Positions 32,380 to 48,697 of a stretch of 57,327 nucleotides of DNA are shown piece by piece (position 1 is the stretch's first letter; every line of letters starts with the position of its first letter). The DNA comes from a virus (Duplodnaviria > Heunggongvirae > Uroviricota > Caudoviricetes), in the IMG/VR virus record IMGVR_UViG_3300034357_000765; one strand, written 5' to 3'. Below the pieces are notes generated by a model. The model made no database searches and was not told the DNA's origin. It worked only from the letters and a program-made list of their open reading frames with translations. A program made the translations under genes and the position numbers.

Positions 32380-32598
32380 TTAAGATTCGCCCAATATTTT
32401 CACTATCTTTTTATCTCTTTCTTCTTGAAGGTTCAGATATTGAAAATAGTCATATTTGTCTTTGAATCCGTGCTTGACCAAAATCTCTTCTTCGTGATCC
32501 AAGAACTCTCTTAAGCCAACCGTTTTCTCATTTAACATTTTACAGATGTATTCATAATCATCATAGTCATCATACATCTTACTAACTCCACTTCCCAT
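32380..32598 (-). CDS. hypothetical protein with C-terminal RDxKL tag, 72 aa
   Basis: Ends RDKKIVKILGES. Confidence 0.65.
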   Translation of the reverse strand: MGSGVSKMYDDYDDYEYICKMLNEKTVGLREFLDHEEEILVKHGFKDKYDYFQYLNLQEERDKKIVKILGES

Positions 32599-32599
32599 A

Positions 32600-33070
32600 T
32601 TATCTTAGTTTTTCTCTAACACTCATTATTGCTTCTCCAAGCCAATTCGTTCCTTGCCATTGAGACTTATCTAAACATCTCGCGTCTGTCTCATGCAATC
32701 CGATTCCCCAAATCTTGTCATAAGGACTAGCTTCCACAATCTCAAGATCATCAGTGTACATAAGTTCTTCCAACATTTTAGGATTCTGTGTGAACTTCGC
32801 CATATTTGCATCGAATACAACCTGGCGACAGATAGCTTCCCATTTGTCTTTGTCGAATCCTTTTACTCTACGACCAAATCCTTTTTGCTCATCAGGACTC
32901 TTTGAGTACATAATCATCTTATGACTTTCTACATCATTGAAAAGCAAAGCTTTCTGAGCCATCATATATTGTTCACAACAGTTGTACTCAACTTCTTCTA
33001 TAATGAATTTAGATGGATACCATTGCGAGAAAACTCCGTTCCAAAAGAACACATATTTTTCTGTAATCAT
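32600..33070 (-). CDS. NADAR (YbiA-like) family protein
   Basis: FSQWYP...EQYMMAQKA..F.D...QKGFGR.V..FD...W...AKF.QN...VEASPYD.IWGIG...G.N.LG.A.M.VR. Confidence 0.9.
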   Translation of the reverse strand: MITEKYVFFWNGVFSQWYPSKFIIEEVEYNCCEQYMMAQKALLFNDVESHKMIMYSKSPDEQKGFGRRVKGFDKDKWEAICRQVVFDANMAKFTQNPKMLEELMYTDDLEIVEASPYDKIWGIGLHETDARCLDKSQWQGTNWLGEAIMSVREKLR

Positions 33071-33079
33071 ATTATTTAT

Positions 33080-33454
33080 TTATTTTAAAGGGAAGTAATC
33101 CCCGATTGTTGTTTTTCTTTCTTCGTCAAACTGTTCTAAACCCAAAAGCCTGTTCAGCATTCTTTCCCTATAATAGATAGTTCCCATTTCATAGATACTA
33201 TCCATGTCGATGAACTCACCAATAAGTCTTTCCTCTATGGTAACTCTTACTCGTTTAGACACGTACGTTCGGTAAACCTTTTCTTTGTATTGCCAAGACT
33301 CGTACTCATAATCGTAATATGAATAGGAATCATACTCCCAACCATAGTGGTAGTAATCATCCCAACAATACCAATTGTCCGCGATCATTTCCCAATCTAC
33401 CGTGAAGGTGTCTGAGTATATTTCAGATTTACTTTTGTACTTTCCTAATGACAT
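33080..33454 (-). CDS. Tyr/Trp/Asp-rich hypothetical protein, 124 aa
   Basis: In operon; subterminal RERMLNRLLG. Confidence 0.65.
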   Translation of the reverse strand: MSLGKYKSKSEIYSDTFTVDWEMIADNWYCWDDYYHYGWEYDSYSYYDYEYESWQYKEKVYRTYVSKRVRVTIEERLIGEFIDMDSIYEMGTIYYRERMLNRLLGLEQFDEERKTTIGDYFPLK

Positions 33455-33822
33455 TACTTTAATAGAGTTTTTAATCTCCAGTCTCTTACTATGATTTTAA
33501 AGTCTTCGAAGCTAGAAGACTGTGACATCAAGTCTACCTTTTCGTTTATCTCTTCGATAAGTTCTTTAAGTTCCTCACTTCTTTCTTTTATTCTACCATC
33601 ATAGACACATTCTATCTTTGTATCTCCTTGTTGACGAGGAACAATCCAGGTAACGACGTTCGAATAACTCCATTGATCTTTGACCTGACTGATTACTTCA
33701 TTCGCCCTTTGTGGTGACAGTCCGTTCACGTTTATGTAGTAGACAAAGATTGGATTGTCCAGGTCTATTTCCACCTGTGGTTCTTTTATTCCATAATTTA
33801 CATTCATGTATGTTATATACAC
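33454..33822 (-). CDS. hypothetical protein with C-terminal RDxKL tag, 122 aa
   Basis: Ends RDWRLKTLLK. Confidence 0.7.
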   Translation of the reverse strand: MYITYMNVNYGIKEPQVEIDLDNPIFVYYINVNGLSPQRANEVISQVKDQWSYSNVVTWIVPRQQGDTKIECVYDGRIKERSEELKELIEEINEKVDLMSQSSSFEDFKIIVRDWRLKTLLK

Positions 33823-33827
33823 AAAAG

Positions 33828-34262
33828 CTACATATGTTTTCTTATATCTATATGAGAAATCTTCTCAAAGTCTTCTGAAGACTTGTATAATAAGAATGGT
33901 GTAGTAAAATATTTTGAATAAACTTCAGTATCATCAATATGTAAATCAATCTCATTTGACTTACAATATCCTGCCTTTATAGTGTCCCAAAGGTCGTAGT
34001 CAAACTTCTCTTGAATAGTTCCATCAGGAAACTGAATAGTTCCGATACTGTCTATTCCAGAGTCGACAAGATAGTCGTACACTGAAAAGTGAGAAGTCCA
34101 CTGAATACCATAATCTTTAAGCTGATTTTCGAGTTCTGTTGTCCACGAACCACCGGTGATGATATGTACTTCTCCATTGTTGGAAATAACAGATTGACTC
34201 ATAAACGCAAAAGATTTTGGGTTTGAGTCAATAACACCGTGTATGTCTAGTCCTAGTTTCAT
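33828..34262 (-). CDS. HAD-superfamily phosphatase-like protein, 144 aa
   Basis: LGLDIHGVID (motif I variant), IITG, HIDD. Confidence 0.65.
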   Translation of the reverse strand: MKLGLDIHGVIDSNPKSFAFMSQSVISNNGEVHIITGGSWTTELENQLKDYGIQWTSHFSVYDYLVDSGIDSIGTIQFPDGTIQEKFDYDLWDTIKAGYCKSNEIDLHIDDTEVYSKYFTTPFLLYKSSEDFEKISHIDIRKHM

Positions 34263-34630
34263 TCGTTGAATAAATCATTTAATTTAGAATCTCTTTGCAT
34301 AGACTTCTTTAGTTCCTCTGGTACATTACCGACGAAGCCATCCCAGCCCCTTATCTGATGGTTTGCAGATTTTGCTATGATTATCTTTTTTATATCAGAT
34401 TTGATTTCACTAATATTCAATTTAGTATCAACTAACTCAGGACTTTCATTTATTAAATCATAACGAATGTTTTCCCACTTCCACCAAAGAAACTTTCTTT
34501 TAATAACTACCTTTTTATAGACATAAAGATCATGATAGTCATTACTACTATCTCTATCTTCTATCTGAAAGTAGTATGTATTTCCGTCTTCAAAAATAAA
34601 CGGAGTCATTTTTATAACAATATCACTCAT
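34259..34630 (-). CDS. hypothetical protein with C-terminal RDxKL tag, 123 aa
   Basis: Ends RDSKLNDLFNE. Confidence 0.7.
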   Translation of the reverse strand: MSDIVIKMTPFIFEDGNTYYFQIEDRDSSNDYHDLYVYKKVVIKRKFLWWKWENIRYDLINESPELVDTKLNISEIKSDIKKIIIAKSANHQIRGWDGFVGNVPEELKKSMQRDSKLNDLFNE

Positions 34631-34634
34631 ATAA

Positions 34635-34642
34635 CAAATATA
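34635..34642 (-). promoter_or_regulatory. Bacteroidota-type promoter -7 box TATATTTG
   Basis: TTTG 19 nt upstream (34662-34665). Confidence 0.65.
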
Positions 34643-34649
34643 TCAAAAA

Positions 34650-34946
34650 TTATTCATTGTTCAAAAGTCTTTCAAGCCTTTCGTCTCTTATCAGTGATTT
34701 AACCTCGACAAGATTGCAGACTTCCTTCATTATCTTTTTTGGTAGTGTCTTTTGAAGATTCTTACCAAAGAGTTGTTCTCTCAGATCCATCCTTATACAG
34801 TTTGCATAAGGAAACCTAAGACGTATGTACTCATACTCCATATCGCTTGCGATTGGAATAACTTTATACGAATATTTATTTATTAGTTTAGATGTTTGAT
34901 GTGCGTGAATCGCAAGGCTTTTATATTTTATGAAGTAGTCACTCAT
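34650..34946 (-). CDS. hypothetical protein with C-terminal RDxKL tag, 98 aa
   Basis: Ends RDERLERLLNNE. Confidence 0.7.
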   Translation of the reverse strand: MSDYFIKYKSLAIHAHQTSKLINKYSYKVIPIASDMEYEYIRLRFPYANCIRMDLREQLFGKNLQKTLPKKIMKEVCNLVEVKSLIRDERLERLLNNE

Positions 34947-35508
34947 GTCGTGCTATTTTAATGTTGTACAAAATTACTAAAAAAGTATGTGCAATCTCTG
35001 CAATCGCCATCCCATGAAACATACTCAAAAGTATTATAGGAAACACGGCCATCGATGTTGATATTATAACCTTTTGTAACCAATCAGAATACTGCATATA
35101 TTTTCGATTCAGATAAGCAAACATAAATATAGTCAGAGGATAGAAGAAGAAATAAAGCCCTGCGGAAACATTGTGTATCAGTCTATAATCTATGTTGAAA
35201 AAACCTACTGCAAAAAGACAAGTCGATAAGAATCCAAATAAAAAATAAAACTTTTTCTTATACTTTATTCTAGTATTGTTCTTTAAATAAAGAAAAGAGT
35301 TCACAAATATCGATACCGCGAAAAGACACACCGCGGAATTCCATATTCTTCCAATCCATCCAGACTTGCCCCAGTTTGAAAGCTGTATCTCACGTATGTC
35401 CAAATTGGCAAACTTCCAACAAACCAAGAATACTGACAAAAATATAAATATGGAAATATAGGTCTGAGACCTTCTCACCATTCTTATCAGACGTTCTCTT
35501 GATAGCAT
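34939..35508 (-). CDS. multi-pass membrane protein (DUF998-like), 189 aa
   Basis: Five to six hydrophobic helices; H-x-x-S-A motif. Confidence 0.6.
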   Translation of the reverse strand: MLSRERLIRMVRRSQTYISIFIFLSVFLVCWKFANLDIREIQLSNWGKSGWIGRIWNSAVCLFAVSIFVNSFLYLKNNTRIKYKKKFYFLFGFLSTCLFAVGFFNIDYRLIHNVSAGLYFFFYPLTIFMFAYLNRKYMQYSDWLQKVIISTSMAVFPIILLSMFHGMAIAEIAHTFLVILYNIKIARHE

Positions 35509-35569
35509 ATCGACTCATATATTTTGAAGGGATTTTCTCCCTTCTCTATATATAAGTTTTTAGAAACAA

Positions 35570-36886
35570 TCATTTCTTAGCATCATATTCAGGATTCATG
35601 TACTTACAACTCAAGTCATTTGTGTACAGAGTTCTTACAACAACACCCTCAATGATTCTACCCTCTGATTTCTCTTTAGCAAAGATACCATCACAGTATT
35701 CACAAAGAGCTTCATAGGTCGCAAACTTAGCGATAAACACCGGAGTGTATTCAATCCCAAGAATCTTAGAAACATCTCTCAAATTGTGAGGAGATGAATA
35801 GTTGATTCTTTTAGAGAATCCTTCAGACAAATCATCAATCCCGAAAAGAACAAGTTTCTGTTTTTCATTTGAATCCGGATTCACTTTGTTTCCAGAACCT
35901 TTCAATCCTTGTCCGATAATCTCTCCACGGAAAGCAAGCTGCAATCCATGCTCTTTACAATAAGCTAAACCATTTTCCAATAGTCCAGAGTTTGTAGCCA
36001 ATTCAATCCAAGAGTCTTTTACTTCTTTAGTGATTGCTTCAAAACCATCCATTTCATCATCTTCTCTGAACTGAGATAAATTATCACAAAACCATCCTTT
36101 AGTCATAGTGTCTTTATCAAAGTATCTATGATAAAGATTTTTATCTTCATCTAAGTATTCAGTAACAAAGGTTTGATCCATTTTCTTTTCTTGAGCTCTG
36201 GAACAAACACCAGATTTGTAGTCTTCACCTTCTAATTTGAAGTAAGTCGTGTGAGAACTACCATCACGTTTGATAGTGATTCCCATTTCCTGACCTTCTG
36301 TTATTATCTTTTTGACGTGGTCTACAATGTTGTTGATGTTTTGTTCATCAGTCTTATACATAAAAGAAGGGAACTCACCAGCGATTAAACCAGAGCCTGC
36401 AGTTTCTGGTTCTTCATACTTAGTGACACCCAACTCTTCTGCTAAGTCTAATTCTCTATATGCTTCAGGAGAAGGCATATCACTATAGAAGCAATAGTTT
36501 TCATCACCTTCAAACAAGAAAGCTTCTACTTCTTCTAAAGGTAGTAAGACACCATTTGAATAAATAGGGTCGTTAGAACCTTCGAAAGAAAAGTTAAACT
36601 TAATCGCACGAATACGATTTTGCTTACCTAATCTAGATCTCTTTGGATCTCCACCAGGTGCAATGAAACTCATAAATAAGTCGTTTTCAGAAAGACAATA
36701 GTCTGGTTGGATATAGATTGCCTTTGAACCTATCTCATATAAGCCTTTCTGTGCAATCACATTAAAACCACATTCACCACCATTATCAAAACTAAACTTA
36801 GCTACTTGAATAGCATTTGCCTCAGCTCCTTCTTTGAAGACTGGAATCAAATTAGTTATCGTTACAATTTCTACTATCTTTACCAT
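35570..36886 (-). CDS. RNA ligase, DRB0094/Rnl5-like, 438 aa
   Basis: N-terminal OB-like module; TIKRDGSS, FRGEIIG, EGVVVR, KYMNPEY. Confidence 0.82.
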   Translation of the reverse strand: MVKIVEIVTITNLIPVFKEGAEANAIQVAKFSFDNGGECGFNVIAQKGLYEIGSKAIYIQPDYCLSENDLFMSFIAPGGDPKRSRLGKQNRIRAIKFNFSFEGSNDPIYSNGVLLPLEEVEAFLFEGDENYCFYSDMPSPEAYRELDLAEELGVTKYEEPETAGSGLIAGEFPSFMYKTDEQNINNIVDHVKKIITEGQEMGITIKRDGSSHTTYFKLEGEDYKSGVCSRAQEKKMDQTFVTEYLDEDKNLYHRYFDKDTMTKGWFCDNLSQFREDDEMDGFEAITKEVKDSWIELATNSGLLENGLAYCKEHGLQLAFRGEIIGQGLKGSGNKVNPDSNEKQKLVLFGIDDLSEGFSKRINYSSPHNLRDVSKILGIEYTPVFIAKFATYEALCEYCDGIFAKEKSEGRIIEGVVVRTLYTNDLSCKYMNPEYDAKK

Positions 36887-36894
36887 TTTTATTT

Positions 36895-37509
36895 TTATTT
36901 AAGAAATGTTTTTTCATAAACATCTCTGATTGCTTTTATTCCATTTGGTTGAATCTCTCTGGTTCCTATACCAGCAAAATCCTGTTCTGTTATCAAAGGT
37001 ACTTCTTTTAATTCTACAAACCTAAGAGAATTGTAAGACCATCTAAACCATTTATCTTTAATCTGATCAAAAACAAAAACATCGTTTTCTTGGTTTATCG
37101 CCATCATTACAGCATATCCAGTACCACCATCAACTACATCATTCTTAGAGTTGTTCTTATATCCTTTAACAGATTTCTCACCTGCTTTGATTATAGTACC
37201 GATAGCAAAAACTTGCTTTGAATATTTAACTTGTGCCCAGTTTCTGGCCAACAAACTCATATACTTATGAATACCAAATCTACCCAAAGTTTTGTTTGCT
37301 TTGGTTATTTGAATAACACCTTCTTCATAATCTGCATCCGAAATCTCTACTTTATTTGGAGATACGTGAGACTTTGTTCTATATGAATAAGCCTTAGTCT
37401 TAACACCAAACTCTTCACCAATTTCATCCCAAACTGTATCAGCACCGGTGGCACCACCGGAATGACAAGTTATTTTAGTAAGATCTATTTTTGTGTTGAA
37501 AATATCCAT
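36895..37509 (-). CDS. SLOG-superfamily (YspA/YpsA-like) protein, 204 aa
   Basis: CHSGGATGAD, LARNWAQV, GGTGYAV. Confidence 0.72.
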   Translation of the reverse strand: MDIFNTKIDLTKITCHSGGATGADTVWDEIGEEFGVKTKAYSYRTKSHVSPNKVEISDADYEEGVIQITKANKTLGRFGIHKYMSLLARNWAQVKYSKQVFAIGTIIKAGEKSVKGYKNNSKNDVVDGGTGYAVMMAINQENDVFVFDQIKDKWFRWSYNSLRFVELKEVPLITEQDFAGIGTREIQPNGIKAIRDVYEKTFLK

Positions 37510-37769
37510 TAGTCTAATATGTTTTTTAATATAATTTCTCTTATTGTTGCGGTATCATTCAAATAAACTTTTATACAGAAAGTACCATTGAACTTATTTA
37601 GTATAGTCGCTTTTTCAAACGACTTCACACTCGCTGGTATACCAATCTTTCTGAGATACTCTGTTGCTCTCGTTTTTGCAAACACAGTATCAAAACCAAC
37701 AACCTTATCATCTATAACATCTTTCAGTATAAGTTTTTTGTTGGTATCATAAAAGTAAATGTCAGTCAT
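37509..37769 (-). CDS. hypothetical protein with C-terminal RExxL tag, 86 aa
   Basis: Ends REIILKNILD. Confidence 0.65.
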   Translation of the reverse strand: MTDIYFYDTNKKLILKDVIDDKVVGFDTVFAKTRATEYLRKIGIPASVKSFEKATILNKFNGTFCIKVYLNDTATIREIILKNILD

Positions 37770-38640
37770 TCAATTCTAATTTTAAGTTGTCTGTGCTCCA
37801 GATTGCAAGCTCGCCATCCATTCGGAAATACAAGTCTCTGATGTCATATGGCTCGTTGAAGATATATTTTTTCAAATACATAAAAAACTTATGACCATTA
37901 CATCCAACTGGCTCGCTATGTAGTATTTCACCACTATCTTTACAAAGATACTGATTTATTCTGAAGTTTTCAACTTTTTTAATAGTAAATGGTGTTATAG
38001 TAAAATCTTCACCATCCAATCCTTCGATAATCTCTCTAACATCTTCTATCTTTTCAAAAGAGTAGATAATCTCGTCGTGTTTAATACACTCTATTTTAAG
38101 ACCATATTTTGACATAGCGTTTTTGATGTCTTCAATCATCACTCTTTGTGCCTTTATCTGTTTCTTTGGATTTAGATTTCCAAAGATATACTGTCTGAAA
38201 TGTTTTGATTTATGGAATACCTCTGGTACTCCAAACTTATTCAAGAACTCAGAATAGGTTTCACCTAATTCATTTATAAAAGATGGATCGTATTTCTTCA
38301 TTGCTTGCCAGTTCGCCATCTTTAAGTCAATAGAAAGATAGTTCACTCCCTCAGAATATTCGAAGCTCTTGTTAGTCGGATAATCTGGAATAAGATTTTC
38401 GTCTGCCATATCGTTGTATGCACGAGTTCCTTTAACAAATGCAACAATTTCGTCAATCTTAGACATACGATATTCAAACATGTCTCCAATCTCTGACTCT
38501 GCCTTTTCATATAGTGTAATAAGCTCGTCAAGGTTCTTCCATCTATCAATACGTGAGAATTGATTCTTGTAGTATTCGAAGTCGTCAAAACTTGCTATGT
38601 TCAAATCAAACATCTTACAAAAACTCTTTATATCTTTCAT
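37762..38640 (-). CDS. hypothetical protein, possible polymerase-palm-like fold, 292 aa
   Basis: LSIDLKMANW ... SKHFRQYIFG ... IKHDEII; the ORF is solid, the function is speculative. Confidence 0.6.
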   Translation of the reverse strand: MKDIKSFCKMFDLNIASFDDFEYYKNQFSRIDRWKNLDELITLYEKAESEIGDMFEYRMSKIDEIVAFVKGTRAYNDMADENLIPDYPTNKSFEYSEGVNYLSIDLKMANWQAMKKYDPSFINELGETYSEFLNKFGVPEVFHKSKHFRQYIFGNLNPKKQIKAQRVMIEDIKNAMSKYGLKIECIKHDEIIYSFEKIEDVREIIEGLDGEDFTITPFTIKKVENFRINQYLCKDSGEILHSEPVGCNGHKFFMYLKKYIFNEPYDIRDLYFRMDGELAIWSTDNLKLELND

Positions 38641-38645
38641 CTTTA

Positions 38646-39071
38646 TTATTTTAAAATTTCATCAATCTTTCTATCTCTATCCAACACTTTGTTTCTTTTT
38701 AAGAAACTTTCCCAATGAACAGCAAGTCTTTCTTTTTTCTGTAGCTCGTCTCGTCTCTTACAGAATCTCTTTACATATTGAAGTAGAAAATAGAATCTTA
38801 TTTTAGACAGACCAATATCCTTTAGTTCGTATTTACATTCGTCTCTACCATCACAAAGATGTATATAGTATGGTCTATTATCATCAGCATCATTATTCCT
38901 TTTAATCTCTTTAAGAATTTTTAGATACTCTGATTTGAATCCTTTTTGGTCAGGTCCATAGCTAGGTTGAATCTTTGTTTTTACCCAATCCGCACTTTGG
39001 TTTTTCATTTCTCTTACGATGAATCTTTTCAGCTGAGCCAGTGATTTTTCCGTTTCTATTTCTTCTCTCAT
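38646..39071 (-). CDS. hypothetical protein with C-terminal RDxKI tag, 141 aa
   Basis: Ends RDRKIDEILK. Confidence 0.7.
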   Translation of the reverse strand: MREEIETEKSLAQLKRFIVREMKNQSADWVKTKIQPSYGPDQKGFKSEYLKILKEIKRNNDADDNRPYYIHLCDGRDECKYELKDIGLSKIRFYFLLQYVKRFCKRRDELQKKERLAVHWESFLKRNKVLDRDRKIDEILK

Positions 39072-39508
39072 AATATTTTTTTTAGTTTAAAGTCTCTTAC
39101 AATGGTCGTTGGTTCATCCTTCATTCTACCCATATCCTCCATCAATCTTCGATTCATTTCGTTTATCAAGATTACGTCTTTCAACTTCTCCTTCGACAGC
39201 ATCAGAAATGACTTTGGATCACCAACATCTCTTGGGTTTCTCTTCGTGCTTGTTCCAGGTATGTTCATATAATAGTTCTGCTTTGGAAGCGTCCATGTAA
39301 TCTGCCACACATCTTCTACTATCGTAGTTCCTATGATGTAGTTGTCTATCACTAACATAGACATATGATTATTCAACTTCTCTGAATAACATTTTACAAA
39401 TATTCTTTTCAGTTTATGTTCATACTTTACATAGTCTAAATCACAAATCTTGTATTCCTCTTCGAAGAACACTTCTTCAAGCAATGATTTTATTTCATCT
39501 GCGTTCAT
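39068..39508 (-). CDS. hypothetical protein with C-terminal RDxKL tag, 146 aa
   Basis: Ends RDFKLKKIL; ATGA overlaps. Confidence 0.7.
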   Translation of the reverse strand: MNADEIKSLLEEVFFEEEYKICDLDYVKYEHKLKRIFVKCYSEKLNNHMSMLVIDNYIIGTTIVEDVWQITWTLPKQNYYMNIPGTSTKRNPRDVGDPKSFLMLSKEKLKDVILINEMNRRLMEDMGRMKDEPTTIVRDFKLKKIL

Positions 39509-39783
39509 AGTCCTATATTTTTTAACTTAGCTTCTCTAAGTAATGGTAGTATTACTTCGTCATAAGAATAGTCTTCGCCTTCTTTCAGAGTCCAAACAAG
39601 TTCAGATAGTTCCTTTTTTATAATAGAGTGTGTTTTGTCAAATTCCAAACGAGTTGAGAACATTCTCTTTTCAAGACGGAAGAAAGTCGGAGGTGTCAGT
39701 CTTCCTTTCATCACACATTTTATAAGTTCGTCTTTTAAGCAAAGATAATACTTTCCACCATCTTTAATCAAAAAAAAATTCAT
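39505..39783 (-). CDS. hypothetical protein with C-terminal RExKL tag, 92 aa
   Basis: Ends REAKLKNIGL. Confidence 0.7.
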   Translation of the reverse strand: MNFFLIKDGGKYYLCLKDELIKCVMKGRLTPPTFFRLEKRMFSTRLEFDKTHSIIKKELSELVWTLKEGEDYSYDEVILPLLREAKLKNIGL

Positions 39784-40157
39784 ATACCCAGTTTTTTCAA
39801 CTTACTTTCTCTATATTTTATCCTGTCTGGTTTGTATTCATCAGCGATATGTTCAAACCATTCTTTCCAAGTATCGAAGAACTCAAAGTTAGACCACATA
39901 CTCATTCGATCTTTCTCTTCCATCATCTGCTCTTGATTATAGTATGATGTCTCTAATCTCTGCTTGTCGTCGAAACTTAGACACAACCACCAATCCTTTT
40001 CTACTTTTTTAGAAAGATACTTTGAATAGAAAAGAGAAAGACGATGTTCTTGCTCTCTTCTTACCTGTCTATCAGACTTTGAAGAAGAGTAATATCCAAC
40101 CTCACCATCTCTCTGACGATCCTGGAACTTCGAAAAGTTGTTGTCTTTATATTTCAT
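39780..40157 (-). CDS. hypothetical protein with C-terminal RExKL tag, 125 aa
   Basis: Ends RESKLKKLGI. Confidence 0.7.
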   Translation of the reverse strand: MKYKDNNFSKFQDRQRDGEVGYYSSSKSDRQVRREQEHRLSLFYSKYLSKKVEKDWWLCLSFDDKQRLETSYYNQEQMMEEKDRMSMWSNFEFFDTWKEWFEHIADEYKPDRIKYRESKLKKLGI

Positions 40158-40513
40158 ATTCCTAATGATTTTAATCTTTCGTCTCTTCTGTATATCTCAT
40201 AGTTTTCATCGTCTGTTATGAAGTGTCTTTCTAATTCATCCAATGTCATATAGACCCATCTGGTTCTATCCTCATATTTTCGTTTCCATGAATCTTTAAT
40301 AGGATTGTTGTTTTCATCAAAGCAACCAACCCAATCATCTTCTAAACACAATCCCCAACCTTTCTTATCAGTCGCTGCGTTGTATTCTAGATTACCTTGT
40401 CCTTTTACTTTATATGTAGAGCCAACACGAAGTCCTTCGATTGGTTCGATACAAACAACTGCCATACAATCCCATCTTTCTGTCATATCTTTATTTTTCT
40501 CCGTGATGATCAA
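40154..40513 (-). CDS. hypothetical protein with C-terminal RDxRL tag, 119 aa
   Basis: Ends RDERLKSLGI. Confidence 0.7.
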   Translation of the reverse strand: MIITEKNKDMTERWDCMAVVCIEPIEGLRVGSTYKVKGQGNLEYNAATDKKGWGLCLEDDWVGCFDENNNPIKDSWKRKYEDRTRWVYMTLDELERHFITDDENYEIYRRDERLKSLGI

Positions 40514-41099: not shown

Positions 41100-41371
41100 T
41101 TTCTTTTTAATCTTTTTATTTTTTCTTTTATTATTGACTCGACTATACTTTGTCCGTATGTGTCACATATATCTTTACCATTCTTATCATAGAACTGAAA
41201 GCACTCTAAATCTCCGTTTTTTTCACAGAATATTTGACCTACTATCTTTTCACCGTTTATTGTCAATGTTCCTGTATAACAAACTTCTTCATCAGTTCTT
41301 TCGATAGTCTTCAATCTAAAGATTGTGGACTCTATTTTGTTGAACTCGTCGAATCTAAATATTCTAGTCAT
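41096..41371 (-). CDS. hypothetical protein, 91 aa
   Basis: Start moved to ATG 41371 (MTRIFRFDEF), downstream of the promoter. Confidence 0.6.
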   Translation of the reverse strand: MTRIFRFDEFNKIESTIFRLKTIERTDEEVCYTGTLTINGEKIVGQIFCEKNGDLECFQFYDKNGKDICDTYGQSIVESIIKEKIKRLKRK

Positions 41372-41385
41372 GCTTTTATTTTTTA

Positions 41386-41393
41386 CAAATATA
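41386..41393 (-). promoter_or_regulatory. Bacteroidota-type promoter -7 box TATATTTG
   Basis: TTTG 20 nt upstream (41414-41417); heads the leftward accessory operon. Confidence 0.65.
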
Positions 41394-41441
41394 CGAAACA
41401 CAACTGACACCGACAAATATATAAACAAAAAAAAGTATTTA

Positions 41442-42311: not shown

Positions 42312-42312
42312 A

Positions 42313-42322
42313 TTAATATATA
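42313..42322 (+). promoter_or_regulatory. phage-type promoter motif TTAATATATA
   Basis: Heads the five-gene MKxLKxF cluster. Confidence 0.6.
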
Positions 42323-42351
42323 GTATATAAGAAAAAAAACAAAAAAGAAAT

Positions 42352-43101
42352 ATGAGAAATCTTAAAAAATTCGAAAACTTTGATGGCCTTGCTGCTGATG
42401 AAGAAATGGATCAAATGAACAACGACCAAATCTATGCAGATAGAGATGCCCAAGACGAACATGATACACATGATGCTCAATATTCTCAAAATGACGAAGA
42501 ACCAGTAGACGTTTTAGCTAGATTCGAAGAAGAATTTGGTGATAATGAACCATCTAACCAAGAAGTTATGGAATTCTATCACAAACTTAGATCAGAAGGT
42601 GTTGATGGTATAGAAATATTTGACACACTTTTAAGTAATAATAAAATAGGTGAAGGTGATGATGAGAACTACTCTGATGATGATGATAACTACGATCCAG
42701 AGCACGACGAAGATTTCGGTGCAATGAGAGCTGACGGTTCTGATGACTTAGGTTATGATGATGAAGAAGAAGGTCAAGAAGATCAACACTTCGAAGGATT
42801 GAAAAAGTTCTTTGAATTTAATGATATTCAAGAAGACGAAGAAGGATTTGACGAATTTGGTAATTATGATGGCTTAGACAAGAATCAGAGGAAAAAAAGA
42901 ATGCAAGAAGACGAAGAAGAAAGACAAGTTCAAGTGGACGAAGAAGGATTTGACGAATTTGGTAATTATATCGGATTTTCAGATAGTAACTATGATAAAA
43001 TTAACATCAACCCCAACATTGTACGTAAAGGAAAAGAAGGTCAAGAAGATGCTCAACAATACGAAAGACGTTCTTTAAAAAGATTCAACAACTTCAAATA
43101 A
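42352..43101 (+). CDS. very acidic, probably disordered protein with three LKxF motifs, 249 aa
   Basis: MRNLKKFENF, EGLKKFFEF, RSLKRFNNFK; D/E-rich. Confidence 0.72.
   Translation: MRNLKKFENFDGLAADEEMDQMNNDQIYADRDAQDEHDTHDAQYSQNDEEPVDVLARFEEEFGDNEPSNQEVMEFYHKLRSEGVDGIEIFDTLLSNNKIGEGDDENYSDDDDNYDPEHDEDFGAMRADGSDDLGYDDEEEGQEDQHFEGLKKFFEFNDIQEDEEGFDEFGNYDGLDKNQRKKRMQEDEEERQVQVDEEGFDEFGNYIGFSDSNYDKININPNIVRKGKEGQEDAQQYERRSLKRFNNFK
42835..42969. repeat. exact 33-nt intragenic direct repeat (42835-42867 and 42937-42969)
   Basis: gacgaagaaggatttgacgaatttggtaattat (DEEGFDEFGNY) twice. Confidence 0.9.
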
Positions 43102-43421
43102 TGAAATACTTAAAGAGATTCAACGAAGAGTTTGGTAAAAACGAAATAGTTTTCATTAGTCAGAGAAATCCAAGACTTTTGATAACCGTTTCTATTTCCC
43201 CTGATAGAAGAATCTCGAATATAGATAACAAGACGGGAATAAGATTTCCGTTTTCTGTCGGTCAACCAATCAACAGAACTATGGAAGTCTGGGCAAGCAA
43301 CAACAATTTTTTGATGGACGGAAAAGACGTAAGTCCTGAAAAGAAAGTTTTTGGTGTAAGAGCATCAGACGTACCACAGGGACATGAGTGGAGATCAATA
43401 TACCCAAACAAATTTAGATAG
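43101..43421 (+). CDS. hypothetical protein, MKYLKRFNEE N-terminus, 106 aa
   Basis: Stop/start overlap with the previous gene. Confidence 0.72.
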   Translation: MKYLKRFNEEFGKNEIVFISQRNPRLLITVSISPDRRISNIDNKTGIRFPFSVGQPINRTMEVWASNNNFLMDGKDVSPEKKVFGVRASDVPQGHEWRSIYPNKFR

Positions 43422-43422
43422 T

Positions 43423-43773
43423 ATGAAACACTTAAAAAGATTTAACGAAAACAGCCACGACTGGAGAGCCAACGCTTTCCCGGGTGCAACAGAAGAGGAA
43501 ATCGAAGCAGAAATCCAAAAGATAGAAGCAGAAAGAAAAGCAAAAAATCCTCAATCAACTCAACCTACTATTACACCTAAAGCAGTTCCTGCTAAAAAAA
43601 TGACAGAAGAGGAAGAGGAAAACTATTACCGTAGCACAGGATGGGCAACTGGTGATTATGGCCAATACAGAAACCAAAGCACAGATTCTAAAAAAGAAGA
43701 AGAAAAAGAAGTTGAAGAAGAAAAGCCAACACTTGGATCTAAAATAAAAAGTTTTTTCGGATTTAACAAATAA
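43423..43773 (+). CDS. hypothetical protein, MKHLKRFNEN N-terminus, 116 aa
   Basis: Start moved to ATG 43423. Confidence 0.72.
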   Translation: MKHLKRFNENSHDWRANAFPGATEEEIEAEIQKIEAERKAKNPQSTQPTITPKAVPAKKMTEEEEENYYRSTGWATGDYGQYRNQSTDSKKEEEKEVEEEKPTLGSKIKSFFGFNK

Positions 43774-43782
43774 TAAAAGAGA

Positions 43783-44238
43783 ATGAAATACTTAGAGTCA
43801 TACAAAAACTTCCCAAAGAAGTTCGCACACAAATGGAACAGTGAAACACCTGTAGAGATAATCCTACCTAACTACCTTGATGAAGAAAAGGAGAAGGAAA
43901 GAATGCAAAAAGAATGGGAAGAAGCAAACGAGGAAGGTGAGGAAGGCGAAGAAGAAGTATCCGAAAAGAAAATGAATGAATCTGCCGAAATTATGTTAGG
44001 TGATAACAAAATTCATGAAGTCAAAGAAGGAGATCAATTAAGATTCATGGAACACTATAAGAACCATCTTATTAAGAAATATTCACCATCTTTTACAGAT
44101 GAAATAAACCTAGACGAACCGGTAACTTTTATAAGGGTTGAATCTTCTAACTTAATCCGACCAAATTTAATAGTTCGCACCAAAGAAGGTGTTGACTGGG
44201 TATTCGGACCAGAGGCATTCGTATTGGATAGATTGTAA
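43783..44238 (+). CDS. hypothetical protein, MKYLESYKNF N-terminus, 151 aa
   Basis: In operon; Glu-rich middle. Confidence 0.7.
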   Translation: MKYLESYKNFPKKFAHKWNSETPVEIILPNYLDEEKEKERMQKEWEEANEEGEEGEEEVSEKKMNESAEIMLGDNKIHEVKEGDQLRFMEHYKNHLIKKYSPSFTDEINLDEPVTFIRVESSNLIRPNLIVRTKEGVDWVFGPEAFVLDRL

Positions 44239-44252
44239 AAAATATAAAGAGA

Positions 44253-44699
44253 ATGAGGCATCTGAAGAGGTTTAACGAAAGCATAGAAGAAGGTTTAGAT
44301 ATCGAGTATATCAAATTCTGTTTTATCGACATGGTCGAAGAGAAGAAAGATGGCGAAGAACTTGGTGAGATATCATATTGGAATAAAGTATCAGATATTG
44401 GTGCAAAGAAACAGATAGAAGACAGAGACGCCACTTCCAAAAATGTTACCAACGTAATCATATTTGTTATCTGTCCTCAGCTGAATATCGAGCATACACC
44501 AGACGGATTCAAAGGAAGCATATCAGAATTTACAGAATACAACAAAGCATTTGCAGCTTTTTTAGATGAACTTGAAGCAAATATGGAAAAGCTCAAAGAA
44601 GAACATCCAGACTATGTAGTAGAAACCACTTTTAACCAGCCTTTAATAGATGGAATAAAAGGTCTCGACTACTTTGTAATCGAAGTGAAAAAGTCTTAA
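44253..44699 (+). CDS. hypothetical protein, MRHLKRFNES N-terminus, 148 aa
   Basis: Last gene of the operon. Confidence 0.72.
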   Translation: MRHLKRFNESIEEGLDIEYIKFCFIDMVEEKKDGEELGEISYWNKVSDIGAKKQIEDRDATSKNVTNVIIFVICPQLNIEHTPDGFKGSISEFTEYNKAFAAFLDELEANMEKLKEEHPDYVVETTFNQPLIDGIKGLDYFVIEVKKS

Positions 44700-45409
44700 A
44701 TCTTATTCTTCAAGCACTCCCAAAGAATCATATAGATATTGTCTATCTGGTCATACCTTATCTTAACCAAATCAATATAGTTGTCTTCACAATAGTCAGA
44801 CTTTATCTTTTCATCAATCTTTGATTTCTCATAGGTATTCAAGCCACCCAGCTCTTCTATCGACTGAAAATGATAGATACCATCAAACTCTACACAAACT
44901 CTTATAGAAGGAAGATAAAAGTCAAACTCAATCTTATCCAACATATGGTTCTGCTTGAAGTCTATCTTGAACTTTCTAAGAAAGTCCTTTATCTCCCTCT
45001 CGCCTTTGAAGTCGCTTTGATCCAGCAAGTCTCTTATTATGGATTCTTCGTTCTTTCTAAACTCAGGTGCCATACCCTCTAAATGTGAAGAAGGGCGTTG
45101 CTCATACTTTATACCTCTATATAATATCGTTATCGGAGTAAGCATGTTTTTATACTGTACCAAAGAGTAGTCATATTTGTCGCCCCAAACATTTATTGCT
45201 CTTTCAACAAAATCTTCTGTAGACTGACGTGTAGACGACTTCTCTGGACATCGACCCATTAAATGCTTGACAACACTTTGTTGATATTCAACACCATTAT
45301 ATTCTATATCAATCTTATCGGACAATATAACTTTCTCGTTTAAAGTAGGATATGTGTATTTATATCCGTGCCTTTCTCTTGCTTTCTCTAAAAATTCCAT
45401 CTTCTTCAT
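44696..45409 (-). mobile_element. free-standing homing-endonuclease-like gene (DUF723-type repeats + Vsr/DUF559-like nuclease)
   Basis: Two F.EKA...HG.KY.Y-type repeats; FDFYLP....VEFDG..HF...K..YC......L..I.Y nuclease domain. Confidence 0.65.
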
Positions 45410-45513
45410 ATAGTATATATAAAAAATCACACCCTCTTTCGGAACTATTTTAAAAAAACTTGAAAGGGAGGTATAGTTTCTTTATATATAAAGTATAAAA
45501 ATAATTTAAGAAG

Positions 45514-46746
45514 ATGGCAAAAGCAGTAAAAGAAGGAAAGAAATTCGAATTCAGCAAAGTTGGTTCTATATTAGACAACATAGCTAAATCTATTCCAATC
45601 TTAATAGAAAAGGAAATTAAAGAAAAAACATTCATCACAACAGGAGTTTATTTATTAGACGCCGCACTATCAGGAAGATTGCTAGGTGGTGGAGTTGCAT
45701 CAAACAGAATCACGGCATTCGCTGGAGAATCCGGTGCAGGTAAATCGTTCATCGCTTATTCAGTATCAAAGCACGCACAGAGAGCCGGATATTCGGTAAT
45801 CTATATCGATACAGAACAAGCGATTGACTTAGAAGACTTACCAAAGTTTGGAATCGACAACTCTTTGGAAAAGTTCAGATTAATCAGATCTAACAAAGTA
45901 GAAGATGTAAACATGTTATTGACTCAGTTGATAGATGATTTGAAAGAACAAAAGCTTGCAGGATTTGAACTGCCTAAACTAATGATTGTATTAGACTCTT
46001 TAGGTCAAATGGCAAGTAACAAAGAAAAGGCAGATTTATTGAAAGGTGATATCAAACAGGATATGACTAAAGCAAAAGCATTAGGTTCTATGTTCCGTTC
46101 AATCAACACAGACTTAGGATACTTAGATATTCCAATGATTGTATGTAACCACACTTATCTAACAATGGACCTTTTTCCACAAGAGAAATTAAAAGGTGGT
46201 AATGGTTTGTTATACTCTGCATCAGTAATCGGCTTTATGTCTAAATCAAAATTGAAAACAGGTGAAGAAGATGATATGGACTTAGGTCAATCAGGAATCT
46301 CTGTATTGTTCAAGACTGCAAAAAACAGAATGGCCAAACCTAAGAAGATTAGATTTGACATCTCTTTCGCGAATGGTATGAATCCATACACAGGATTGGA
46401 TGCCTTCTGCAGACCAGAGTATATGGATCAGATTGGAATCGCTAAGGGTAAAATGGATGTAAACAAAGCCACTGGTGAAATGACTTTTGTACCTGGAGGA
46501 AACAGATGGTATGTATCACACCTAAACAAATCAGTTACTACAAAACAACTATTCTCACAAGAGGTTTTCACAACAGGCGTCTTAGATAGAATGGCACCGA
46601 TTGTAAACGACTACTTTAGATTCAAGTCATTAGACGAGATCGAAGAGGTAGAAAACGAATTCAACAAGATAGTTGGAGAAGATGATGAAGAAGATGACAC
46701 AAATGGCTTCACAGATGCTACGGACGCAGGAGACCTTTTTGGATAG
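45514..46746 (+). CDS. recA: RecA/UvsX recombinase, 410 aa
   Basis: TTGVYLLD..LSG, AGESGAGKS, IDTEQA, IVLDSLG, NHTY, KGGNG..YSAS. Confidence 0.88.
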   Translation: MAKAVKEGKKFEFSKVGSILDNIAKSIPILIEKEIKEKTFITTGVYLLDAALSGRLLGGGVASNRITAFAGESGAGKSFIAYSVSKHAQRAGYSVIYIDTEQAIDLEDLPKFGIDNSLEKFRLIRSNKVEDVNMLLTQLIDDLKEQKLAGFELPKLMIVLDSLGQMASNKEKADLLKGDIKQDMTKAKALGSMFRSINTDLGYLDIPMIVCNHTYLTMDLFPQEKLKGGNGLLYSASVIGFMSKSKLKTGEEDDMDLGQSGISVLFKTAKNRMAKPKKIRFDISFANGMNPYTGLDAFCRPEYMDQIGIAKGKMDVNKATGEMTFVPGGNRWYVSHLNKSVTTKQLFSQEVFTTGVLDRMAPIVNDYFRFKSLDEIEEVENEFNKIVGEDDEEDDTNGFTDATDAGDLFG

Positions 46747-46801
46747 ATAGTAAGAGAAAGTCGAAGGGTACTTTAACCCTAAAAAATAAAAATGAATAAT
46801 T

Positions 46802-46972
46802 ATGCAAGAAATCTATGAGAACTTGAAAACATTATGGGAGCAATTTGATGCTAATCATAATAAAACGACTAAAAAATCTAACGCTGACGCAAGAAAAGCA
46901 TTAGGAGAGATTAAAAAGTTGGTTACTACTTACAGAGCTGCTTCAGTTGAGTCTGAAAAAGTTGCTAAGTAA
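46802..46972 (+). CDS. Hc1/Bacteroidota histone-H1-like small protein, 56 aa (missing from the ORF track)
   Basis: MQEIYENLKTLWEQFDANHNKTTKKSNADARKALGEIKKLVTTYRAASVESEKVAK; ARKA..EI.K....YR.AS.E pattern. Confidence 0.62.
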   Translation: MQEIYENLKTLWEQFDANHNKTTKKSNADARKALGEIKKLVTTYRAASVESEKVAK

Positions 46973-47000
46973 TAAACTTATTATATAGCTAACTATATAA

Positions 47001-47105
47001 GAGTATGTTTTCCTTGTAGTCATAAAACAAGGTGGTGGAGCCGAAAACAAAGATCTTAATAAAGATTTGGCCCAAACCCTCTCCTTTTAAAGAGAGGGTT
47101 TTTTG
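47001..47105 (+). ncRNA. candidate structured small RNA with its own terminator
   Basis: GC-rich island: CCTTGT/ACAAGG hairpin, TGGT linker, GGAGCC/GGCCC stem, then AAACCCTCTC/GAGAGGGTTT plus T-tract; no plausible ORF. Confidence 0.45.
47074..47104 (+). terminator. intrinsic terminator
   Basis: 10-bp stem followed by a T run. Confidence 0.85.
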
Positions 47106-47124
47106 TTTATTGAAAAATAATATA

Positions 47125-47132
47125 TATCTTTG
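47125..47132 (+). promoter_or_regulatory. Bacteroidota-type promoter -7 box TATCTTTG
   Basis: TTTG 19 nt upstream (47102-47105). Confidence 0.7.
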
Positions 47133-47148
47133 TAAAAGAAATAAAGTA

Positions 47149-47211
47149 ATGAGAGAATTTAATAACAAAATGATTTTGCATGAACAAAACAGTCAACGAC
47201 TGAGTTTATGA
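47149..47211 (+). CDS. putative attenuator leader peptide MREFNNKMILHEQNSQRLSL, 20 aa
   Basis: First ATG after the promoter; stop lies 20 nt before a terminator; 3' end can pair with the terminator 5' arm. Confidence 0.5.
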   Translation: MREFNNKMILHEQNSQRLSL

Positions 47212-47231
47212 TATTGTATTCAACGATATTT

Positions 47232-47262
47232 AAACCCAGTCTTTATTAAGGCTGGGTTTTTT
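47232..47262 (+). terminator. conditional terminator of a putative attenuator
   Basis: AAACCCAGTCT/AGGCTGGGTTT plus T run, 20 nt before the next ATG. Confidence 0.8.
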
Positions 47263-47281
47263 GATTTTAAAAAATAAAGAT

Positions 47282-47449
47282 ATGGAAATGACTATTTACA
47301 AGTATATGAAAGATGGCAAGTTGTACATGTTTCATACCGTCGAAAAAGAGAACGGGAAAAAAGAAATATTGGCGATACCAGTTAGACATGACGGAAAGCC
47401 AATAGTGAACTGTGACATAAAGGATTTTGTGCTGCACTCAATGGATTAA
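47282..47449 (+). CDS. hypothetical protein, 55 aa
   Basis: ATG 47282 preferred to the TTG in the ORF track. Confidence 0.6.
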   Translation: MEMTIYKYMKDGKLYMFHTVEKENGKKEILAIPVRHDGKPIVNCDIKDFVLHSMD

Positions 47450-47466
47450 AAATAAAATAAAAAGAT

Positions 47467-47619
47467 ATGGAATTAAAAGAAAAGATAATATCAAAGGAAG
47501 TGATGAGCGGAAACTTGGAATCAAGTTACGAAATCCTTAGGATAAAGAAAAAGAAGATAAAGAAAAAAGCAAAGAAAAATATTTTTAAATCGCTTAAAAA
47601 ATTGTTAAAGAAGAAATAA
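47467..47619 (+). CDS. Lys-rich basic microprotein, 50 aa (missing from the ORF track)
   Basis: MELKEKIISKEVMSGNLESSYEILRIKKKKIKKKAKKNIFKSLKKLLKKK. Confidence 0.5.
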   Translation: MELKEKIISKEVMSGNLESSYEILRIKKKKIKKKAKKNIFKSLKKLLKKK

Positions 47620-47636
47620 TTTATTATATTTACACT

Positions 47637-48158
47637 ATGAAAGTAATATTTTTGGATAACGATGGAGTAATGTGCTTATCTACAGAGTGGGGCGGTCGCG
47701 ACAAAAAGATTAAGAAATGGAAGCTTTCTAATCCTGGAGATCCTGGATACGTAAACGATCCAAAGATACCGGCACATATAAAAATGGACAACTTTAACTC
47801 AAAGGCAGTTAAAGTCTTAAACGACATATTGACAATAACTGATGCTGAGATTGTAGTATCTTCTGATTGGAAGTTGCATTGTACACTAGAGCAGTTACAG
47901 GATATGTTTATCAAGTACGGAGTTTTAAAAGCACCGATTGGGAGTACACCTAATCACGTTTTAAAGTCTATGGACGAACTTGAAAGCACGAGAGTAGCCG
48001 AAATATCGGAATGGCTTTCGAGTCATCCAGACGTAGAGAAATGGGTAGCCATTGACGATTTGGATCTTAGTGCTTTACAATGTTTCGTTCACACTAAGAG
48101 AATGAAAGAAGGAATCAAACAATCTGGCATAAAAGAGCAGATTTTAAAGTTCTTATGA
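47637..48158 (+). CDS. HAD domain of the Swiss-Army-knife RNA-repair type, 173 aa
   Basis: KVIFLDNDGV, IVVSSDWK, WVAIDD. Confidence 0.8.
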   Translation: MKVIFLDNDGVMCLSTEWGGRDKKIKKWKLSNPGDPGYVNDPKIPAHIKMDNFNSKAVKVLNDILTITDAEIVVSSDWKLHCTLEQLQDMFIKYGVLKAPIGSTPNHVLKSMDELESTRVAEISEWLSSHPDVEKWVAIDDLDLSALQCFVHTKRMKEGIKQSGIKEQILKFL

Positions 48159-48190
48159 TAACATAAGAACTTTTTTCATATATAAAAGAT

Positions 48191-48697
48191 ATGACATTAG
48201 AAGACTATAACAAATGGATTGAGATGCTCAAGACCGTAGAGATACGTAAGGGTAACCATAATCTATTACAAGAAGTCTTCAAGTTCTCACCAGAGAATTT
48301 TTCAAAATCAAAAGGATTAGATACCGAGTCTTTTGTAAAGCAGTTTCAAAAAGAAAGAAAGATAATACATCATCGACTGATTGACTTTAATAAGATACAA
48401 ATATTAAAGAAAAGAAAGTTAAAGATTGAGAAATACACAACTGGTGGAAAAACATATGATGCCAGAATATGTGTTTGTATAAAGAGATTTAAGAATGAAG
48501 AACCTAGAGCAAAGGGTGGATATGACTTCTACGAGACGATACAATACAACTATGTAATCATATATGATTCTTTCTTTGGTAAAGATGATGCCATCATATT
48601 TGATGATAAAGGAGGAAGAGTTTACTCAACTGTGACTGAGTTCAATAAACATTTTATTGATATTAGAGAGGACAAAATAAATAGTATATTGAAATAA
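48191..48697 (+). CDS. hypothetical protein with C-terminal RExKI tag, 168 aa
   Basis: Ends REDKINSILK. Confidence 0.7.
   Translation: MTLEDYNKWIEMLKTVEIRKGNHNLLQEVFKFSPENFSKSKGLDTESFVKQFQKERKIIHHRLIDFNKIQILKKRKLKIEKYTTGGKTYDARICVCIKRFKNEEPRAKGGYDFYETIQYNYVIIYDSFFGKDDAIIFDDKGGRVYSTVTEFNKHFIDIREDKINSILK

Follow-up and report, generated by a model that had tools for sequence, protein, structure and literature searches.

Sorting and degradation tags at protein termini are textbook biology in cells; in phages, to our knowledge, such tags are limited to small sets, e.g., the capsid-targeting sequence of T4 or the acidic tails borne by T7 and T4 replication proteins. Here we describe a C-terminal tag, a motif of about ten residues beginning with R-[DE], that ends many small and otherwise unrelated proteins encoded in a 57,327-nucleotide stretch of the IMG/VR virus record IMGVR_UViG_3300034357_000765 (hereafter the window, meaning the whole stretch) and in related huge phages. 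Clp degrons and tethers, such as ssrA acting via ClpX/SspB and the "C-motif 2" of MuA, resemble this tag in being short, transferable end peptides that bring unrelated proteins to one machine. They occupy the extreme C-terminus, where the tag too is enriched 16-42-fold, and the phages of the tag lineage carry ClpP, a ClpC-type unfoldase and small adaptor-like proteins. However, the tag is of neither the LAA nor the RRKKAI type, is predicted to be helical, has its invariant Arg at the tenth residue from the end, and is carried by 12-18% of the proteins of a virus.

Other described systems share single features with the tag. The T4 capsid-targeting sequence (MKTYQEFIAE type) is likewise a terminal label common to unrelated, fast-evolving small phage proteins, yet it is N-terminal, spans about 10 residues ending in Glu, is cleaved by the prohead protease and is confined to a few late proteins, whereas the present tag is C-terminal. 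The late head-protein expression typical of T4 does not appear to be matched either, as judged from upstream sequences, since tagged genes lie outside the class preceded by a phage-specific box (see below). Encapsulin shells have the HK97 phage capsid fold. The cargo-loading peptides of encapsulins and the encapsulation peptides of microcompartments are, like the tag, short and often C-terminal; helical or extended in form, they bring diverse cargo to one shell. However, they have other motifs and serve one to few cargo genes beside the shell gene, whereas the tag has over 100 clients, with no shell gene linked to them. The Dot/Icm (type IVB) effectors also make up about a tenth of a proteome and are fast-evolving, unrelated proteins whose loosely conserved C-terminal signal is read by one coupling complex, but they belong to bacterial secretion and their signal is fuzzy (an acidic block with small or hydrophobic residues), whereas the tag is sharp, apparently helical and viral. 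Clamp-binding tails (QL[SD]LF, the PIP box and the gp45-binding C-termini of T4) similarly dock hydrophobic C-terminal peptides on one hub, and the LGI and IGL endings of the tag recall the QLVLGL end of E. coli Pol IV; yet the tag logo has no Gln or aromatic pair and shows L-x-x-L rather than L-x-L, and its clients, 96% of them without a known domain, are ORFans instead of replication proteins and far more numerous.

The tag and its distribution

The initial annotation of the window had listed 12 such termini. All of them are found in translations of open reading frames (ORFs), 11 as terminal copies with the Arg 9-12 residues from the end and one as a subterminal copy, and the run of five consecutive tagged genes is present at 38646-40513 on the minus strand. 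A strict motif, R[DE]x[KR][LI]xx[LI][LGF] within the last 16 residues, ends 10 of the 73 window proteins, compared with a mean of 0.0035 and a maximum of 1 in 2000 residue shuffles, while a general motif is observed 11 times against 0.62 by shuffling. Over the whole contig that holds the window, 14 matches to the strict motif fall in the last 16 residues of proteins and only two in the other ~44,500 residues. Codons vary synonymously at the motif and match genome-wide usage (Leu is encoded by TTA, TTG, CTT, CTA and CTG, Lys by AAA and AAG five times each, and Asp by GAT and GAC); therefore, selection acts on the protein and not on DNA or RNA. The protein bodies are unrelated, as had been proposed: sequences stripped of the tag have no BLAST similarity to one another (best E-value 0.055 in a 26-sequence database), and Pfam and PHROG scans of ten tagged window proteins returned nothing above cut-off. 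The recognisable enzymes and other annotated proteins of the same gene strings, i.e., a NADAR protein, an RNA-ligase-like protein, a DUF998 membrane protein and a HAD_SAK_2 protein, are untagged.

The window lies on a 150-kb virus contig with a G+C content of 33-34% and a coding density of 95% under translation table 11. The UvsX-like recombinase of this contig is 83-84% identical to those of LR756502 (642 kb) and LR745206 (635 kb), both complete "uncultured phage" genomes, 54% identical to that of LR756504 (636 kb), 48% to that of LR756501 (735 kb) and 33% to those of the Prevotella Lak phages. Judged from these recombinase identities, the window is a piece of the genome of a huge Bacteroidota phage belonging to the Mahaphage/Lak assemblage (Al-Shayeb et al. 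2020, PMC7162821).

With ORFs called identically in each genome and the general form of the motif, R-x-x-x-h-x-x-h-h (h, hydrophobic) within the last 16 residues, tagged proteins number 27 of 207 (13%) in the contig itself, 182 of 1001 (18%) in LR756502, 116 of 663 (17.5%) in the 476-kb IMG/VR contig G001 and 113 of 966 (12%) in LR756504. Thus, the initial figure of about 12 tagged proteins is right for the window and far too small as a scale, and the tag is phage-wide, ending 12-18% of proteins across four genomes. Its terminal enrichment over the internal rate in these genomes is 16-20-fold for the general form, and stricter forms reach up to 42-fold. A degenerate DNA pattern encoding R-[DE]-x-K-L-x-x-L-G-I-stop matched 105 IMG/VR stretches, often several times each and up to at least 13 times per contig, and these loci encode 360 proteins with the motif at their end; the 310 distinct tagged proteins from the IMG/VR loci and the contig group into 215 BLAST clusters, of which 174 have a single member.

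Beyond this lineage the tag fades into background. LR756501, a 735-kb sister phage of similar base composition, is close to chance (4 observed versus 2.1 expected for R..[KR]h..h), and a looser DNA pattern shows no excess in Lak-A2 (2 versus 4 in the control), compared with 10-44 versus 0-8 in tag-bearing records. In 596 Gb of bacterial and archaeal genomes, the degenerate DNA pattern yielded only 45 single matches, scattered over unrelated taxa. Because the sister and Lak genomes are at background and the cellular matches are scattered, the tag is a feature of one megaphage lineage and not of A/T-rich coding sequence or of host proteomes.

The consensus logo reads R(0) [DE](+1) x K(+3) [LI](+4) [NK] [EKQ] [LI](+7) [GL](+8) [IK](+9) end, with weak preference upstream. 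Some two thirds of tags place the Arg at exactly 10 residues from the end, and the remaining third have 1-6 extra residues. LR756504 has its own dialect, R-K-x-[KI]-I-x-x-L-L-end, on 113 proteins: the whole consensus is shifted together, and the sharp peak of the Arg position, at -10 elsewhere, is at -9. A scan of IMG/VR for this R-K dialect gave mostly single background matches. The AlphaFold2 model of the 119-residue protein at 40154-40513 is poor overall (predicted local distance difference test score 58), and its most confident part is a helix at residues 102-116 that passes through R-D-E-R-L-K-S and ends before L-G-I. This model is consistent with an amphipathic helix that is closed, one or two residues before the protein ends, by a Gly/hydrophobic C-cap; R(0), h(+4) and h(+7) would share one face of this helix. 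When a profile of 80 tag ends was compared with all PDB chains, only a chance match was found, to the SNARE motif "ERDQKLSEL" of VAMP2 (E-value 0.5-1).

Tagged proteins are small (mean 107-130 residues), soluble and slightly acidic, with transmembrane segments in 6-12%, equal to untagged proteins, and with no signal peptides. Only about 4% have a Pfam domain (5 of 122 in LR756502 and 7 of 100 in the IMG/VR loci), the exceptions being riboflavin kinase, BtpA, dCMP deaminase, DUF6011 and TacA1; the tagged riboflavin kinase, BtpA and dCMP deaminase indicate that the tag can also sit on ordinary enzymes. A homologue in LR756504 exists for 5 of 182 tagged LR756502 proteins versus 68 of 529 untagged small proteins (p = 3e-5), and by this homology count tagged proteins are the most lineage-specific genes of the phage. 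Where orthologues exist, they retain the tag at 27-48% identity. The LR756502 protein W01_571854 is tagged, whereas its LR756501 orthologue simply ends earlier without a tag, showing that the tag is a module that can be present or absent. One sharp motif thus ends about 100-180 proteins per genome, most of them unannotatable and with the fastest turnover between related phages. The literature that we searched, which in the case of Iyer et al. 2021 (PMC7824862) was its passage on ClpP, contains no description of such a tag that we could find. New here are the R-K dialect, the tagless sister genomes, the cellular-genome control, the statistics on promoter class, N-tag exclusivity and ORFans, and the elimination of the Clp, PrkA, PDZ and McsB candidates.

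A common reader and its alternatives

The sharp C-terminal register, protein-level selection, more than 200 unrelated bodies and lineage-wide change of consensus together point to a docking peptide with one partner, and a single reader that co-evolves with the tag would predict just such a shift as that from R-[DE] to R-K, made by more than 100 proteins at once. The reading that we favour, tentatively and at somewhat less than an even chance, is that the tag is a portable C-terminal docking helix with one common, co-evolving reader for all tagged proteins. The tag would be a short linear motif marking one class of the proteome, namely small, soluble, fast-evolving ORFans in tight arrays, and a common reader that binds the helix and co-evolves with it would handle more than 100 unrelated proteins as one group. 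If there is one reader, the tag would allow the "dark" early proteome of huge phages to be purified, localised or destabilised as a whole and at once, and would group hundreds of ORFans by function for the first time. It would also give new genes a simple route into the viral programme, and the peptide together with its reader could serve as an orthogonal tagging pair in Bacteroidota. The lineage dialects make such a reader findable by co-variation as more genomes are sampled. A more ambitious version, which we regard as doubtful, is that a clade of Bacteroidota megaphages possesses proteome-scale addressing, in which a dialect-bearing helix and a phage-encoded reader govern more than 100 unrelated early proteins of rapid turnover and new ORFs join by ending in the tag; the addressed proteins would be stabilised, timed for destruction or localised. 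Such an addressing system, if true, would be the equivalent, in a virus, of the sorting signals of cells and would speed the birth of new phage genes.

Several candidates for the reader arise from gene content. LR756502 and LR756504 have 51 families in common that lack a match in tagless LR756501, about 10 of which belong to proteolysis or chaperone functions (three ClpP paralogues, ClpS, a small UVR-motif protein, GrpE, an HPD J-domain protein and PrkA-YeaH-SpoVR), an enrichment that is suggestive at the level of gene families. The catalytic motifs of the three ClpP paralogues are intact, and the ClpP gene of G001 lies inside a tagged array. The most likely sub-reading, itself a minority bet that we consider unlikely, places the reader within the proteostasis machinery, with an N-domain-less ClpC-type unfoldase plus ClpP, or DnaK and GrpE plus a clade-specific J-domain protein, as candidate readers; the tag would then govern the lifetime of early, marginally stable proteins or serve chaperones as a handle on them.

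A number of results weigh against a common reader or against these candidates. The initial annotation proposed an address label docking proteins onto one hub, such as a phage scaffold or compartment, host RNA polymerase or ribosome, or a protease adaptor; the phage-wide occurrence, protein-level selection, unrelated bodies and mostly untagged enzymes bear out the label, whereas no hub emerged from the comparison of gene content between tag-bearing and tagless genomes. That contrast amounts to about one phylogenetic event, and hence the differences in gene content may reflect clade history. Among the genomes sampled, no proteostasis gene tracks the tag: ClpP is found in LR756502, LR745206, LR756504, G001, G002 and G004 and is absent from tagless LR756501, but no copy was detected in G003 and G006, whose genomes may be incomplete, and it occurs in tagless Lak; ClpS is also present in the tagless contigs G017 and G018; PrkA-YeaH-SpoVR is absent from tag-rich G001, G002 and G004; and DnaK is encoded by every one of the five complete phage genomes checked, the two tagless ones among them. 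The neighbourhoods of candidate genes show neither enrichment in tagged genes nor consistent linkage, except for the single ClpP of G001. These phages have no McsB arginine kinase, and the idea of phospho-arginine marking was therefore dropped. L-G-I/L endings would suit a ligand of PDZ or tail-specific proteases in about a quarter of cases in whole genomes and up to half in the IMG/VR loci, which were selected for that ending, and neither PDZ_2 nor S41 protease has a match in five phage genomes. One third of tags have 1-6 extra residues, so there is no strict need for the free carboxylate to stand at a fixed position. The concerted dialect could in part reflect new genes born on existing tag-coding 3' ends rather than reader co-evolution, and the early timing of the tagged genes is read solely from promoter motifs.

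The UVR-motif protein and the J-domain protein are the only candidates limited to tag-bearing records among those sampled, a limitation that, from gene content, may be mere clade membership. Complex prediction with the J-domain protein, the UVR-motif protein and a 36-residue tag alignment gave a score of 0.01, which is uninformative and was not used as evidence. The ~210-residue J-domain protein (G001 421690-422322; L327 1690-2319, plus strand; homologues P0015-P0134) has a true J domain, with a conserved HPD, flanked by a coiled-coil N-terminus on one side and a conserved, W-rich C-terminus on the other. Its homologues in metagenomes number over 400, one of them on an 816,658-bp contig, and with the phage DnaK and GrpE it makes up a complete phage Hsp70 set. 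The phage ClpS keeps its N-degron pocket residues and thus looks like an ordinary N-end-rule adaptor. A ClpC-type double-AAA unfoldase at G000 74604-76730 (L304 14607-16730, minus strand) has a UVR-motif middle domain and no Clp_N head; similar ClpC-type unfoldases occur in all five genomes checked, tagless LR756501 included, and the copy of the contig itself lacks the N-domain. The trio of PrkA (AAA+/Lon-like), YeaH (DUF444) and SpoVR lies at G000 20870-25647 (L302), outside the window; it is kept in LR756502, LR745206, LR756504, G006 and G012 and, besides the three tag-rich contigs named above, is absent from LR756501 and Lak. The SpoVR of LR756504 is 135 residues longer, with a faint intein-splicing match.

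A transfer-messenger RNA (tmRNA) is recognisable in LR756504 only (280507-280863, i.e., L196 1501-1857, minus strand; 65 bits), where it was missed by ARAGORN. Its frame encodes an unusually long 24-residue tag, DNVNSFEQSILNELFAPVEMAVAA, in which SILNELF resembles the SIIEELL core of the C-terminal tag of that phage, a likeness of seven residues given without statistics. The tmRNA match in LR756502 proved to be a transfer RNA (tRNA) array only (L198 750-1581, ~373.1-373.9 kb), with no tmRNA reported by ARAGORN; this region holds at least 7 tRNA genes and a tRNA-Sec-like match below threshold.

Sorting of the tagged proteins to a physical destination, i.e., the capsid interior (for packing and injection at the next infection), a phage compartment or condensate, or an export route, is in our view unlikely as an alternative to a common docking reader, although it accounts for some of the same features. 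The tag would then act in the manner of encapsulin or microcompartment cargo peptides, PTS1 or the C-terminal signals of Dot/Icm effectors. The Dot/Icm effectors are arsenals with a common C-terminal translocation signal, and by analogy the scale of 12-18% and the fast-evolving, unrelated small proteins resemble such arsenals; terminal position and lineage dialect would fit a structural receptor. A further tag of these phages is N-terminal and resembles the capsid-targeting sequence of T4; in three relatives it coincides with the C-terminal tag on one protein less often than expected (odds ratio 0.15-0.23, p 3e-7 to 7e-4), which would fit two separate routes. However, head-packed cargo should be late, and the promoters speak otherwise. 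The phage-specific A/T box TTAATATATA, which precedes N-tagged and many large genes, lies upstream of 0-2% of tagged genes, compared with 11% of untagged genes without an N-terminal tag and 18-36% of N-tagged genes. Counted by transcription unit, this box stands before 4.6% of tag arrays versus 20.6%, and the Bacteroidota-type -7 element TAnnTTTG before 28% versus 18%. From these motifs, tagged genes probably form a distinct class that is early and driven by the host polymerase; the initial claim that the tagged proteins are mostly early is thus supported indirectly. Further points against sorting are that tagged genes neighbour enzymes of nucleotide metabolism and RNA-repair type, that the bodies have no signal peptides or transmembrane excess, and that no shell, chimallin-like or secretion gene is linked to the tag, although no systematic search for these was made.

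There may instead be no common reader at all, the tag being an intrinsic stabilising or oligomerising C-terminal cap, or the relic of a 3' gene-end cassette used by new genes, an explanation that we hold to be rather improbable. Tagged genes of LR756502 are tightly clustered, with 75 adjacent tagged pairs versus 33 expected, which would favour local duplication or recombination at gene ends; their products are the youngest and most lineage-specific of the phage, and the AlphaFold2 model shows the tag as the end of a longer helix rather than as a separate peptide. On the other hand, low DNA identity at the tag with scrambled synonymous sites makes recent common descent or gene conversion unlikely, and a stable coiled coil would presumably need more than ten residues. 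A generic cap would have no need of a fixed Arg register, nor would it be expected to switch from R-[DE] to R-K on 100 proteins or to be absent from a sister phage of similar composition and from cellular proteomes.

Coupled re-initiation had been raised as an alternative from the start: the last ten residues, as a nascent-chain signal in the exit tunnel, would slow termination or recycling and so promote re-initiation on the adjoining start. Translation in Bacteroidota does not use Shine-Dalgarno pairing. The gene arrangement lends this proposal some support, as 55-62% of tagged genes overlap or abut the next gene versus 28-33% of untagged small genes (odds ratio ~3, p 1e-6 to 1e-7), only 13% versus 31% are the last of their string, and the register relative to the stop codon is fixed. 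Yet this register is only partly fixed, one third of tags being shifted by 1-6 residues. Arrest peptides acting at termination (TnaC and RAPP type) combine a fixed register with dependence on a release factor and a regulated downstream gene; the tag shows no stop-codon preference. Among strictly tagged LR756502 genes, 73% have a close downstream gene, but 27% have a gap of more than 30 nt or no co-directional successor; non-overlapping tagged genes use stop codons as untagged ones do (TAA ~70%, no release-factor preference), many overlapping genes are untagged, and the isolated plus-strand window gene at 48191-48697 is tagged too. While the excess of overlaps is real, the explanation is weakened by these genes to the point of being improbable.

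Membrane targeting is less probable again. The tag shares with the tails of MinD and FtsA, which bind the inner face of the membrane, a short C-terminal amphipathic helix, with basic residues beside Leu/Ile and a Gly-hydrophobic cap, but it lacks both their broad hydrophobic face and their net positive charge: only three positions are hydrophobic, and a near-invariant acid beside the Arg brings the net charge to about zero in the main dialect, which is unfavourable for MinD-type tails on anionic membranes. Specific recognition is suggested instead by the Arg, which is invariant and stands at a fixed register. Finally, a translated DNA or RNA element (a promoter, terminator, ribosome-loading or recombination site), to which the position of the tag just upstream of the next start in about half of cases and its genome-like A/T richness might point, is scarcely credible, as it is largely refuted by free synonymous variation at genome usage, by conservation along amino-acid classes (L/I, D/E, K/R) with a dialect change that is an amino-acid change, and by downstream contexts of all kinds.

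Tagged genes and other features of the window

Unless stated otherwise, the tagged genes of the window lie on the minus strand and encode small ORFans. The five-gene run starts with the gene at 40154-40513, listed as 119 residues with the true start probably at M17, which has no Pfam match and ends in RDERLKSLGI (tag codons 40157-40186); its orthologues (69-92% identity) all retain the tag, with R110, G118 and I119 invariant. It is followed by genes at 39780-40157 (125 residues, ending in RESKLKKLGI, tag codons 39783-39812, with an ATGA overlap with the next gene), 39505-39783 (92 residues, REAKLKNIGL, 39508-39537), 39068-39508 (146 residues, RDFKLKKIL with the Arg at -9, 39071-39097) and 38646-39071 (141 residues, RDRKIDEILK, 38649-38678), none of these four belonging to a Pfam or PHROG family.

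Further along the same strand, the 86-residue protein at 37509-37769 ends in REIILKNILD, with Ile in place of Lys/Arg at +3 (tag codons 37512-37541), and the 98-residue protein at 34650-34946 ends in RDERLERLLNNE, i.e., the tag plus 2 residues (34653-34688). Two neighbours have orthologues in LR756502: the 123-residue protein at 34259-34630, ending in RDSKLNDLFNE (34262-34294), whose orthologue at 45% identity retains the tag as RDGKLKSILGE, and the 122-residue protein at 33454-33822, ending in RDWRLKTLLK (33457-33486), whose orthologue at 48% identity retains RDWRLKEII plus an extension. The weaker member is the 124-residue ORFan at 33080-33454, in which RERMLNRLLG (codons 33140-33169) is subterminal and followed by 19 residues, with the Arg 29 residues from the end and Met at +3. 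The last gene of the series, at 32380-32598, encodes 72 residues ending in RDKKIVKILGES (tag codons 32383-32418). On the plus strand, the 168-residue ORFan at 48191-48697, without a Pfam match, ends in REDKINSILK (48665-48694).

Two untagged minus-strand genes lie within the tagged strings. The gene at 32600-33070 encodes a NADAR domain protein (PF08719, E-value 8.8e-52) ending in VREKLR, and that at 35570-36886 an RNA-ligase-like protein of 438 residues (PF09414, E-value 1.7e-5, below the curated cut-off).

The N-terminal tag, MKxLKxFxE, is represented by five consecutive plus-strand genes at 42352-44699, none of them C-tagged and the first behind the phage box TTAATATATA. The N-terminal starts there are MRNLKKFENF, MKYLKRFNEE, MKHLKRFNEN (internal), MKYLESYKNF and MRHLKRFNES. 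This T4 capsid-targeting-like tag also occurs in the window at 25520-27229 (minus strand) and 27275-28681 (plus strand), and N-tagged genes often lie 14-39 nt behind the phage box.

Among the IMG/VR records, the pattern matches of G004 (483 kb) are common to G005 (312 kb) and G007 (242 kb), which are overlapping assemblies of one phage; therefore, CheckV "completeness" values of 89-98% are unreliable for such IMG/VR genomes. Positions 1-443 of the window, which begin with a G+C-rich stretch unlike the remainder, lie outside the 150-kb contig; they may mark a record junction or come from another assembly version. Directly downstream of the last tagged gene, a 51-residue ORF (32191-32346, minus strand) ends in EDFSDDLPF, like the acidic C-terminal tail of bacterial single-stranded DNA-binding protein (SSB).

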